64,000 bases of DNA from Heterodontus francisci (Eukaryota): contig NC_090411.1 of NCBI RefSeq assembly GCF_036365525.1, positions 31,884,432-31,948,431 on the forward strand. The letters are read 5' to 3'. Each line of letters opens with the position of its first letter. Positions within the stretch are counted from its first letter, which is position 1. Of this stretch, positions 3,690 to 63,724 are shown one piece after another. Both the position numbers and the translations under genes were made by a program. The notes under the pieces were generated by a model. The model made no database searches. It had not been told where the DNA came from and was given only the letters and a program-made list of their open reading frames with translations.

Positions 3690-3880
3690 AAACCTGCTTC
3701 TATTTCAAAGCTCTGATTGGCTCTGGGCATCACCCCCCCTTCCCCACAACTCCTCTCCTTTGTTTATTGGTGCCTGGATTTATGGAAGATTCCTGACTGG
3801 CTATCAGGGATTGTCAATCATTGGTGATGTCATTCCCTGTTTGAATGCAGGCTGACCAAGAATATAAATACAAGAGCTTG
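3690..3880 (+). promoter_or_regulatory. Conserved proximal promoter of ferritin copy 2
   Basis: TATAAA at 3863-3868, 65 nt before ATG; upstream ATTGG (inverted CCAAT), GATTGTCAATC palindrome and TGATGTCA; the same block precedes every exon 1. Confidence 0.75.
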
Positions 3881-3927
3881 TATGAGAAAGGTTTAGTTTC
3901 AGATAATAGTGTACAGAGATAGTGAAG

Positions 3928-6025
3928 ATGGCTTCTCAAGTGTGTCAGAACTACCACAAGGACTGTGAGGATGCTGTTAACAAGCAGATCAACCTGGAGC
4001 TCTATTCCTCCTATGTTTACTTGTCCATGGTGAGTCTTGTATTCCTTGTCACTGCATCTGAAAAGTGGGAATTTCTCCAGTTCACTGTTTAAAGCTTTAG
4101 TTCTCTTGACTTTCTGTGCTGGGAGAAGAAACCTTTTGGGAAGTGTGTAATACAAGGGGATGATAAGTTAATGGACTGTTCCTTGTAGCAGCTGCTCTCT
4201 ATTGAAGTTTAATATATGAAACAAGCTCAGCTGCTGCCTGTGTTTGTAACTGATGTGCACAAACCTGGTCAAGTGTTTGTGAATTTTGGCAAATGTCAAC
4301 AATGGGGTGATTGTAGTTGGTGAAATGTTGGTTGGTTCTCACTAGTTTGCTTTCCTCTTTGTGTGGATAAGAACTACTGAGAATCCTGGGGTTGAAATCT
4401 TGTTTACTGTTGAACTATGTTGTGTAAAACTACTGGCATTAGAGATTTCTCTTGTTCCATGCCCAATATTTAGTTTAGTATGGATCAATATTAATTTCTA
4501 ATGTCTTTTGCTACCTTGATGTTTCAAAGTGCTTTGCAGCCAATGAAGTACTTTTTGTTTTAATCAGTGTTATCATTCTAATATAGAAACAAAACAGCCA
4601 TTTTGTGCACAATGGGGTCTTGCCAAGTGAGGTGATCAGATTATCTCTTGGTGGTTTTGGCTGAGGGATAAATATTGGCCTGGACCCTGGGGAGAACTTG
4701 CTCTGTTTGAAATAGTGCTGTTATGTCCTATCCCAAGAGGACAAATGGGAGCCTTGCTTTAACATCCCATCTGAATGGTGGAAAGTAGGAGGTTCCACTT
4801 ATCCAGCACTAAGGTTGTTTGACTTGACATGAAATGTATTCCCAAACTTTATTTTAATTTGCTGGTTCCCTTTTCTGTAGAGAAAGGAGGTGGGGCTATT
4901 AAGCATGTTCAATGATAATGAAATGAATTGAATTCTTTGCTAGTGAACTAACAGTGAGATCAGGATCTAGCATTAATTCTATGCTTCAAATTCTCTCCAC
5001 AGTCCTATTACTTTGATCGGGATGATGTTGCCCTGCGTCACTTTGCTGAGTTCTTCAAGGAGCAGTCACATGAGGAACAGGAGCACGCTGAGAAACTGAT
5101 GAAATTCCAGAATAAACGTGGAGGCCGAATCATCTTGGAGGACATCAAGGTTGGATTCAATGAATGTGTGGCCTCCTGTCTGTAAACTGATGCTTTAGAA
5201 AGTATTTGAAAGAATTGGTTCTGAGCTGATTCCATGGTTTAATGCAGTAATTGTATACATTTGTGACCCACTGGTTGCTTTTCCCCATTGTTTACCTTCT
5301 ACTTTCTTGTTTTTGTTTTAATCCATTGTAAGTGAACTGTCTGACTTTCCTCTTCAGAAGCCAGAGCAGGATGAGTGGAGCAATGGTCTGGAGGCAATGC
5401 AGAGAGCTCTGCAGATGGAGAAGGATGTGAACCAGAGTCTGCTGGATCTGCACAAACTCTCCACTGGCAACACTGACCCTCATGTAAGTTCTTTAATGTG
5501 GGCTATTGGCTAAGTTGGAGTTCATGGAACCTTGCAGTCCTTGAGCCTGTTCAGAGGATTTCCATTTGCAATAGTTTTGTGTTGATGTCTATCTTTGGTA
5601 TTTTGGAAAGGGACAGTTGAGGAGGGCTGGGAGGCTGATTTACTCAATGTCCACAGTACATGGATCCCAGTGATCGTGGAATTTAATCCTTTTTTTTTTT
5701 TTTCCCCCTGCCACACAGTAGGTGAACTTTATGATGCATAATCCCATTGCTCTCTGTTGCATCACTTAATTATCCTGTGGTGCCAGAGGAATAAAATTGA
5801 ACCCTTGAGGGCAGCTCGTATTCCTTGATCTGCTGGACATAACTCATTTTCCCCTCTTTTTTTTTTCAGTTGTGTGACTTCCTGGAGACTCACTACTTGG
5901 ATGAGCAAGTGAAGATGATCAAGAAGCTTGGAGATCACATCACCAACCTGAAGAGACTGGGAGCCCCTGACAATGGCATGGGAGAGTACCTGTTTGACAA
6001 GCTCACTCTGGGGGAGAGTGACTGA
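3928..6025 (+). CDS. Ferritin (H/middle-type) copy 2, intact, 176 aa
   Basis: Exons 3928-4029, 5003-5149, 5358-5483, 5870-6025; all GT-AG, phase 0; [29 protein letters not shown]...HEEQEH...QMEK...DEQV...[15 protein letters not shown] at 6170-6175. Confidence 0.95.
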
Positions 6026-6999
6026 ACTGACTGCAGGGTTTAAGCTTGCTGTATTTAATGCTCCTGTGAATTTAATTGTACAAAGATTGAAACCATTATT
6101 GCTGGCACAACAGGAGTGCCTTAACAGAGTTGGGGCCTGGTCTTGATGTGGAGTGTAATGTTAACTATAAATAAACTGCTCAATGTTGGACTGGATTTTG
6201 CCTCCTTTGGTTCCCTCTTTCAGATTAACATGTAGCTTCTGTTGGATAGAAATTATACTAATCTGTACAAGAGCTCTATCATTTCCCATTTGAAAGTTCT
6301 TGAGTTTTCTTTTGGCTATTCAGGGTGACATGTTGAAGGGCTAACATCAATTGTAGAAATGCTTTAATACACATTATTGTACATTGGTGATCACCTTTAA
6401 CATCGTAAAACCATTGCAAGAAGCTTCAGAGCATTACTGAAAGTGACACTAAGTTACAGGAGGAGAAAGCAGGTGCCTAAACTCTTGGTCTGAGATGGGT
6501 ATTCAGAGGTTGCTTTCGACTTCCCTCTGTAAACATCTCTGCCCTCTAGATCTTGAAGTAGGTGACTGAATACAAGAGCATGTCACTACTGGTGACAACA
6601 GATTTAAATTTATAGCAGAGTGATATTCATGAATTGAAGTTTATCAGATGCTTCAATTGTTTAAAATACCAGTGTTTTCTAGTGATTAATATTTGACCAT
6701 TTCAGTGCCTGGGGTTAATGCCTGCCCTGGGAAGTGAAATTTGGGATTGGAAGATTAAAATAACTAACTGGTCTTGACTTCATGTGAATACATCTAGTGT
6801 AGCTCTCACATCCAATTTTATAACTTTAGACTTTCTGATGAGCTTTGTGAGCAGGTTATGAGCATCCCTGAATTGAAAGTACTAAAGGAGATTATGGTAT
6901 TTCAGGTTGATTTCCCAATTGTATTTTCATTTGCCTTTTGGGGGTTGGGTGGAGAAAGGACAGTTTTTTTTTGTGGAGGGGATTGAATTGGACGTAGAT

Positions 7000-7250
7000 T
7001 CAAAATCATACACAAAAAAAGTAGAGGACATTTGAGTTGTGATCTGGAATGTTCCACCTGAAATGGTGGCAGAAGCAAATTCCATAAATAATCTTAATGG
7101 GAGCTAGACAGGTGCTTGAGGCTCAAACTGAATGGGTTATGGACAAAAAGTAGGAATGTAGCATTAAGCACTACTGCTTGTTTGGGAGCTAGCACAGGCC
7201 CAAAGGGCTGAATGGCCTCCTTCTGTGCTGTCAGTTGCTATGACTCTAAG
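7000..7250 (+). mobile_element. Degenerate CR1-like 3' fragment just upstream of the copy 3 promoter
   Basis: ...atctggaat...gggctgaatggcctccttctgtgctg...ctatgactct tail similar to the other CR1 3' ends in the window. Confidence 0.55.
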
Positions 7251-62448: not shown

Positions 62449-62464
62449 CAATCACAGTATAATC

Positions 62465-62656
62465 ATCCAAACCTGCCTGAATTCCACAGCTCTCATTGTC
62501 TCTGGGTCCAACCCCACAGCCCGGCTACATTGTTAATTGGTGCCTGGATTCATGAATGATTCCTGACTGGCTACCTGGAATTGTCAATCATCATTAATGA
62601 TGTCATTCCCCTGTTTGAATGCAGGCTGTCCCAGCAGTATAAATACAAGAGCTTGT
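62465..62656 (+). promoter_or_regulatory. Conserved proximal promoter of copy 11
   Basis: TATAAA at 62638-62643 within the shared block. Confidence 0.72.
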
Positions 62657-62716
62657 GTAGGAATCAGTTAGATTGTTGTTGTTTGAACTTAGCTTCTGTT
62701 CGTAGTAAAGATTATG

Positions 62717-63724
62717 ATGGCCTCTCAAGTGTGTCAGAACTACCACAAGGACTGTGAAGATGCTGTTAACAAGCAAATCAACCTGGAGCTCTATTCCTCC
62801 TATGTTTATCTTTCCATGGTGTGTATTGTTTTCTTGGGGTCCTATTTCAAAGTTAAGAATGAATTTCAATGCATTTTTGAGTAGCGAGAATTTTTCTAGG
62901 CCAATCAGTTGGGTTTATAATTTATCTCTCTCGTTCCCCCGAGACTTAAATCAGTGAACACCCTTGAAATAAGGACTCTATTCCTTGCTCTATAATATTT
63001 ATGTCCAATTTTGAAAGTAACTCCGAGGTTCCATGAAGTTTCTAATAGAGGATTCATGTTGAAGATGTATAAATCTAGTCATCATTTCCAACTTGGATGG
63101 CAACAATTAAGTTCAGTAACTAGTTAGTGAAACATTGTCTGTCTTTCCCCTTTTTTTTTTGTAAATGAGTAAATTTTGTGGTGTTGAGCTCCTTCTTTGT
63201 TTTGTATGAGGAGTAATGATCTTGCATGAAGCAGTAATCTAAGTCTTTCTCTACTGAATGAAGAGAGAAAAAAACTCACTTGCATCTTCATTGGGGGGAC
63301 AAGGGATGTCCTGCTGATAATTATAGCTTGAATGATGAAATGCAACTTTGATCCAAATAGTATTCCTGCCTTCTGTAATGTCACAGGGAGGGGCATTTCA
63401 ACATATTTAGCATTTTATAGCATAAACTTCAAAAACCAAGCCCCTTAATTGAAAGCAAATTCTTCTGAGGTAAAGAATGGGTGACTTATTTACCATGATG
63501 TTGCTACCATTTTTGACTTGGCCATAAATGAGATTGGGTCTGACGCCCTGTCCTTTTCATTTTGCTTCTACCTGCAGTCCTATTACTTTGACCGGGATGA
63601 TGTTGCCCTGCGTCACTTTGCTGAGTTCTTCAAGGAGCAGTCACATGAGGAACGGGAGCACGCTGAGAAACTGATGACATTCCAGAATAAACGTGGAGGC
63701 CGAATCATCTTGGAGAACATCAAG
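62717..63724 (+). CDS. Ferritin copy 11, exons 1-2 (gene continues beyond the window)
   Basis: Exons 62717-62818 and 63578-63724; [13 protein letters not shown]...[27 protein letters not shown]. Confidence 0.92.

Follow-up and report, generated by a model that had tools for sequence, protein, structure and literature searches.

Loss of the iron-responsive element throughout a tandem array of about 85 ferritin genes in the shark Heterodontus francisci

The window analysed here, a stretch of 64,000 nt from the 6.0-Gb genome of Heterodontus francisci (C41:31,884,432-31,948,431; NC_090411.1), lies entirely within a tandem array of ferritin genes, array A, which covers about 600 kb (about C41:31.645-32.249 Mb) and is devoid of the 5' iron-responsive element (IRE) through which iron regulatory proteins (IRPs) control ferritin mRNAs. 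Ferritin exons were mapped over 744 kb around the window and over 80 kb of a second cluster, array B, and this mapping resolved array A into 91 units, 83 with four exons and 8 fragments; 84 units carry exon 1, and the size of the array is put at about 85 genes. Like vertebrate cytosolic ferritins, the genes display the ferritin domain PF00210, four exons and three introns, and the GT..AG joints of introns 1 and 2 were matched in contigs of relatives. Open reading frame (ORF) and splice sites are intact in 68 of the 83 four-exon units and fail in the other 15. The intact copies have a mean protein identity of 95.6% and a pN/pS of 0.21, with 67 of the 68 proteins distinct, and 64 keep all six ligands of a ferroxidase-competent (H/M-type) chain, namely Glu24, Glu58, Glu59, His62, Glu104 and Gln138 (list taken from PMC4117605). 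The intact proteins, 173-176 aa long, begin at the mature N-terminus, reveal no N-terminal signal or targeting extension as in secreted yolk or mitochondrial ferritins, and are predicted to be cytosolic, not secreted. Their identity to the genome's own IRE-bearing ferritins is 74-75%. A large inverted duplication (~C41:31.69-31.96 Mb, centre near 31.818 Mb) takes in the window, with minus-strand copies 5-23 mostly mirroring plus-strand copies 47-30, the same frameshifted pseudogene included. An assembly artefact was ruled out by the ~30% intron divergence between copies and by the distinctness of nearly all proteins.

Copy 35, the first promoter-bearing copy in the window, has a promoter block at window positions 3700..3875 (+) that is conserved across array A and with array B and contains CCAAT-type boxes, the motif TGATGTCA, which we take to be similar to an ATF/cAMP response element (ATF/CRE-like), and a TATAAA at 3863. 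It is followed by a predicted 5' untranslated region (UTR) of ~35 nt without an IRE (3893..3927, +), its start being set at TATA+30, and by an intact four-exon gene (3928..6025, +; exons 3928-4029, 5003-5149, 5358-5483 and 5870-6025) encoding 176 aa with the six ferroxidase ligands. Further intact genes with a TATA box and without an IRE, all on the plus strand, are located at 13171..15623 (ATG 13238), 17777..21446 (ATG 17855), 24725..30094 (ATG 24803), 36882..39224 (ATG 36955) and 53295..55643 (ATG 53374); another, at 62638..64000 (+, ATG 62717), is likewise intact and has its exons 3-4 beyond the window end. The copy at 43791..49654 (+, ATG 43870), also with a TATA box and no IRE, has an exon 4 start that falls 2 nt short and is probably a pseudogene. 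The window also contains a pseudogene without TATA box and with a frameshifted exon 1 (7513..9407, +), an orphan exon-4 fragment (39890..39988, +) and a headless copy consisting of exons 2-4, with neither promoter nor exon 1 (57430..59114, +). A preliminary description of the window had counted eight copies with an intact promoter; all eight promoters were found where it placed them, each TATAAA lying 65-79 nt before its ATG (65, 67, 78, 78, 73, 79, 79 and 79 nt in order), and coding integrity held for seven of the eight. In five of these eight copies a second in-frame ATG stands 3 nt earlier. TATAAA alone is frequent in the window, with 39 occurrences on the plus strand, and the eight sites are taken as real because they are located in the conserved promoter block.

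A scan of the window against Rfam with Infernal cmscan (E<=10) returned no IRE and six chance matches. RF00037 served as a positive control: genome-wide, 82 candidates were scored and five matches obtained. Two of them belong to retrocopies, on C37 and C1, and two to genes, one on C14 and one immediately beyond the array at C41:32,278,910-945; the fifth is an orphan hairpin at C41:32,261,230. A custom covariance model built from these five matches and run over the window with filters off scored at best 16 bits, in a 3' flank, compared with 55-60 bits for its training IREs. Over 80 sources comprising 834,226 bases, it reached E<0.01 at two array-edge sites only (60 and 55 bits), both of which are its own training sequences; the next-best score was 16.6 bits (E 0.3). 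The same model detected neither decayed IRE relics in the array leaders nor a 3'-type IRE anywhere in the searched region. When the pattern C-N5-CAGWGH-N5 was sought in 3 kb upstream of the exon-1-bearing units, it was absent from all 84 predicted leaders; copy 30 has one match with five of five pairs at a distance of 1,991 nt upstream, which was scored by neither covariance model, and the remaining matches have four of five pairs and lie more than 400 nt upstream. The hairpin of IRP-regulated ferritins, with its CAGUGN loop and bulged C, is missing from 84 of 84 exon-1-bearing array units and is present only in the edge gene at C41:32,278,910-945 and in the C14 gene. The absence of an IRE, which had been proposed for the promoter-bearing copies of the window, is therefore borne out array-wide, and the loss is real.

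How short the leaders are was estimated from predicted start sites, with indirect support from retrocopies and from relatives' contigs. Of the 84 units, 79 have a TATA-like site that could be placed (48 TATAAA, 19 CATAAA, 7 TACAAA, 5 other). The predicted leaders measure 25-75 nt, with a median of 48, are weakly folded (median minimum free energy -4.9 kcal/mol), and the pentamer CAGWG occurs in one of 78. Short leaders also agree with two independent processed retrocopies of array genes: one on C48 (one event, duplicated) with a poly(A) tail and a colinear leader of 45-53 nt, and one on C5 with a colinear leader of 48 nt, both without an IRE or a foreign exon. A third, on C36, is 5'-truncated and has a leader of only 8 nt. 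The control retrocopies preserve the IRE of their parents: the C1 copy of the IRE gene has it within a leader of ~146 nt, and the C37 copy has that of the C14 gene. Upstream of the ATG, spliced array-type contigs from five runs of other organisms extend by 27, 38, 41, 68 and 96 nt. The nearest 24-30 leader letters, available for four of these runs, contain no IRE loop; the leader letters of run X15 resemble array A's own leader. The runs number 23, all from small-share relatives and with an RNA status that is guessed, and no expression levels were read from the depth of their contigs.

Comparing 67 array A genes in 400 pairs, we found mismatches at 0.16 of aligned sites in the promoter, taken as 190 nt ending at the TATA box. 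The corresponding values are 0.31 for far-upstream sequence, 0.28-0.32 for introns and 0.24 for the leader (0.37 with gaps counted). Relative to introns or distant upstream sequence, promoter conservation is about twofold higher, and these values indicate that the promoter is constrained and that the leader is largely unconstrained. CCAAT-type boxes occur in 68 of 68 promoters (mean 2.7) versus 46 of 68 control windows (mean 1.0), and TGA(C/T)GT(C/A)A in 63 versus 11 of 68; the motif labels are ones we assume. An antioxidant response element-like (ARE-like, Nrf2/ARE) motif is not enriched, occurring in 3 of the 68 promoters and in 6 of as many control windows, a metal response element-like (MRE-like) motif occurs in none of the 68 array promoters, and E-boxes show no enrichment in them; these counts come from related copies and are not statistics.

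Against this background, we regard it as very unlikely that translation of the array mRNAs is still iron-linked or repressed, be it through a hidden upstream exon with an IRE, through an IRP site of non-canonical type or through some other RNA-binding protein. IRPs are able to bind non-canonical loops, the true start sites are predictions only, the five-pair match upstream of copy 30 exists, and the odd invariance of four-fold sites in exons 2-3, described below, could mask a signal at the RNA level. On the other hand, neither covariance model scored that match or any other in or near the array promoters, none of the 84 units has an acceptor-like site within 120 nt upstream of the ATG, and the leaders diverge nearly like introns, which argues that no leader structure is maintained. 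An upstream non-coding exon with an IRE seems practically excluded as a hidden route of control, because 834 kb yielded two matches, both outside the array, and because the retrocopy leaders are short and colinear. Escape of the array from IRP control was part of the original proposal, together with regulation at the level of transcription; the IRE loss underlying the former stands, the escape itself is inferred from it, and transcriptional control fits the conserved promoter, which is common to the much older array B.

Array B is situated about 5 Mb from array A (C41:26.66-26.84 Mb) and comprises at least 13 exon-2 matches; the 80 kb covered include five intact promoter-bearing genes of these at least 13. 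Protein identity to array A is 74%, no IRE was found in these 80 kb, and all five intact genes examined carry Lys at ligand position Glu59 (E59K). Promoter alignments between A and B score 103-114, versus 30+-5 for shuffled sequences, none of 300 shuffles reaching these values, and the promoter of the IRE gene scores at shuffle level with that of the array. Judged by these alignments, the CCAAT/TGATGTCA/TATA promoter of array B is homologous to that of array A, and the promoter of the IRE gene is not. A tree of 15 sequences of this genome only (8 of the 68 A genes, 3 of the 5 B genes and four singletons), without outside root, unites array A in one clade (support 98/99), which groups with B (84/89), and pairs the two IRE-bearing genes apart (83/82), the deeper forks being moderately supported. 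Eight independent IRE losses are ruled out by the single A clade. The absence of an IRE from every copy, reported correctly by the preliminary description, does not represent eight separate cases; as array A forms one clade and contains the inverted duplication, it reflects inheritance by duplicates of one IRE-less ancestor.

Retrocopies also provide insights into where array genes are transcribed. An unbiased Pfam search identified 11 dispersed ferritin loci, of which seven are intronless array A copies, one derives from B and three from IRE genes; with an added A-derived query, which biases the search towards A, ten of 15 dispersed loci are of array A type and represent nine events. Since these array A retrocopies are heritable, array mRNA must have been present in the germline or early embryo. 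As a separate observation, unrelated ferritin retrocopies on C48 and C1 sit directly behind the same short repeat, suggesting that the mobilising long interspersed nuclear element (LINE) has a target-site preference.

At four-fold sites (12-16 per exon), the intact A copies differ by 0.037 in exon 2 and 0.025 in exon 3; the values are 0.21 for exon 1, 0.09 for exon 4 and ~0.3-0.6 for intron sequence at distances above 10 nt. By this comparison, homogenisation in array A is confined to exons, and short-tract DNA conversion, cDNA-templated conversion or synonymous-site selection could be behind it. Intron loss was found in none of the 83 four-exon units. The exon homogenisation could make ORFs appear intact, and it is here that a largely neutral origin of the array has to be considered, that is, a by-product of duplication in which IRE loss marks decaying genes. 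The 15 four-exon units failing the ORF or splice test, the eight fragments, and the 31 of 79 located TATA-like sites that depart from TATAAA are in line with such a scenario, to which we attach hardly any probability.

We consider it probable that arrays A and B are co-transcribed specifically in oocytes, translated independently of IRPs, and that their chains co-assemble to store iron for the egg. One ancient paralog would have lost its IRE and gained the CCAAT/TGATGTCA/TATA promoter, and this IRE-less paralog would then have split into the ferroxidase-competent array A and the L-like array B. Both arrays would probably be activated together in growing oocytes, their mRNAs being translated regardless of cytosolic iron, with an output set by promoter and gene dosage and not by IRP1/2; A and B chains could then co-assemble into shells banking and detoxifying iron for a large yolky egg, an IRE-bearing housekeeping ferritin being retained beside the array. 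CCAAT boxes have been linked to fish oocyte promoters, though our literature search gave no supporting paper. Of the functions suggested in the preliminary description, oocyte or ovary gained some support, from the germline retrocopies and from an ovary-specific cluster in another shark; the developmental, epithelial-barrier and infection/stress roles are without support, the ARE-like counts offering none for stress. A more far-reaching version, which we put forward tentatively and hold to be rather unlikely as a whole, sees the locus as an IRP-proof iron bank of the egg, in which the H-like/L-like split re-invents the mammalian division of labour, the arrays stand under one oocyte promoter comparable to oocyte 5S or histone genes, and conversion keeps the coding exons, though not the introns, nearly identical, with the genes' own reverse-transcribed mRNA as a possible template.

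Several points weigh against the oocyte interpretation. The retrocopies indicate expression in germline or early embryo and not oocyte specificity, kinship to the Greenland shark cluster rests on resemblance, and a cytoplasmic polyadenylation element is present in none of 68 array 3' UTRs, so that there is no positive sign of maternal mRNA control. Start sites and tissue are inferred and do not come from RNA of Heterodontus francisci; retrocopies are often 5'-truncated, as on C36, which makes the leader lengths minima, and the two relatives' contigs starting 68 and 96 nt upstream are known only in their last 30 letters. One contig of run X2 extends from exon 4 of a copy across the intergenic spacer and the promoter that comes next, so that read-through RNA or DNA is present there.

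A somatic ferritin without an IRE, made by follicle, epigonal, epithelial or stressed cells in response to cytokines or oxidative stress, would be another explanation, in which the ovary signal stems from non-germ cells. Bulk ovary RNA cannot identify the cell type, shark gonads are embedded in epigonal, blood-forming tissue, and array-type contigs occur in runs of several organisms with tissue unstated. For comparison, the tandem fthl27 expansion of the hadal snailfish, resembling array A as a tandem ferritin expansion in a fish, consists of 14 recent copies that are broadly expressed and tied to resistance to reactive oxygen species, with a main text silent on IREs (PMC10746142). At least nine independent array A retrocopies, however, need mRNA in the germline or early embryo, and neither the ARE-like nor the MRE-like counts of the array promoters point to stress induction; the IRE-bearing gene at the array edge carries a TGCTGAATCA site instead, presumably similar to a Maf recognition element or ARE (MARE/ARE-like). 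We therefore judge the somatic explanation improbable.

Among comparable known systems are the ferritin clusters of other sharks. The Greenland shark possesses 155 FTL and 179 FTH1 copies in clusters syntenic with the white shark, and its largest ferritin cluster is ovary-specific in expression, as far as the main text of the preprint reports (10.1101/2024.09.09.611499). The clusters of Greenland and great white shark are described there as ancient large tandem arrays of mostly full-length genes, in which FTH1-like and FTL-like copies lie within a few Mb of one another. Arrays A and B likewise combine H-like and L-like copies in a large tandem cluster on a single chromosome, C41. In that main text the terms IRE, UTR and iron do not occur and Heterodontus francisci is not covered. 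IRE loss, the common A/B promoter and the ligand difference are additions to the reported shark cluster. A second Greenland shark genome report is said to name the ferritin expansion as well, which our literature search did not confirm. This search, which left subscription papers and preprint supplements mostly uncovered, returned no report of IRE loss in shark ferritins or of a common A/B promoter.

Vertebrate ferritins H, M and L are described as IRE/IRP-controlled, and all five salmon H and M isoforms keep their IREs (PMC4117605, PMC11719527). Array A is similar to these canonical ferritins in its exon-intron structure, ferritin domain and six ferroxidase ligands, but differs in having no 5' IRE, an unrelated promoter and about 85 copies. 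Ferritin stocked in eggs, as proposed for the array, is documented for amphibians, snails and schistosomes, ferritin mRNA is abundant in zebrafish follicles, and a title cited in the same source refers to Schistosoma ferritin mRNAs without IREs (PMC1488847). Unlike snail yolk ferritin, array A proteins have no N-terminal extension, are predicted to be cytosolic and have a far higher copy number. IRE-less yolk ferritin of snails is a secreted form, and H/L isoforms exist in Xenopus oocytes. Mammalian FTMT and FTHL17 are germline-biased ferritins without an IRE and are intronless retrogenes; array A differs from them in its three retained introns and in the lack of a targeting leader.

The finding is partly anticipated, with the shark cluster and its ovary expression in print and IRE-less egg ferritins known in invertebrates, and the surprise is moderate, since IRE-less egg or germline ferritins and the shark cluster were already known. 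What it supplies is a regulatory rationale for a reported but unexplained expansion: because an IRE halts synthesis when a filling store lowers free iron, IRE loss plus gene multiplication would be a direct route to mass-produced storage shells. The locus offers a natural comparison set: a housekeeping gene that has its IRE, an orphan IRE that has decayed, and two arrays that lack the element and have one promoter in common. With this set, maternal iron provisioning in a vertebrate becomes directly testable. Caution is also advised in reading shark ferritin copy number as a single-species adaptation for longevity or stress.

Besides the intact IRE-bearing gene, three neighbours lie at the array edge. 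The orphan IRE (C41:32,261,230-263, +; 37.6 bits, above the Rfam cut-off) has a broken loop, CAGUCC, and no ferritin exon follows it. A TACAAAT box precedes it by ~45 nt, and an N-terminally extended ferritin gene lies 3.7 kb downstream; the orphan IRE is possibly a decaying relic of a first exon. The extended gene itself (C41:32,264,920, +, to ~32,275,080) contains introns and encodes an N-terminal extension of 65 aa, of which nine are Arg/Lys and none is Asp/Glu. Proteins of Heptranchias perlo (228 aa) and Scyliorhinus canicula (222 aa), labelled only 'ferritin heavy chain-like', have the same start and a leader that is similar. The extension looks like a mitochondrial targeting peptide, or is possibly a signal peptide; if mitochondrial, the gene would represent a mitochondrial ferritin in a shark, with no dependence on FTMT, the retrogene of mammals. 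A public 721-aa 'uncharacterized protein' is a gene model fusing several array copies with this ferritin, which is therefore hidden in the annotation of the species. The third neighbour, a single IRE-less ferritin (C41:32,255,250-32,259,658, -), is L-like with E58K and H62Q, possesses a separate TATA at 141 nt upstream of the ATG, and is matched by a contig in run X7.

Exons in the left flank of the array (C41:31,615,000-31,628,000) resemble what we take to be CHMP2A. Between the ferritin copies of the window, reverse-transcriptase remnants were observed at 31357-33301 (-), 10774-11892 (+) and 41693-42281 (+), presumably Penelope-like and CR1-like.

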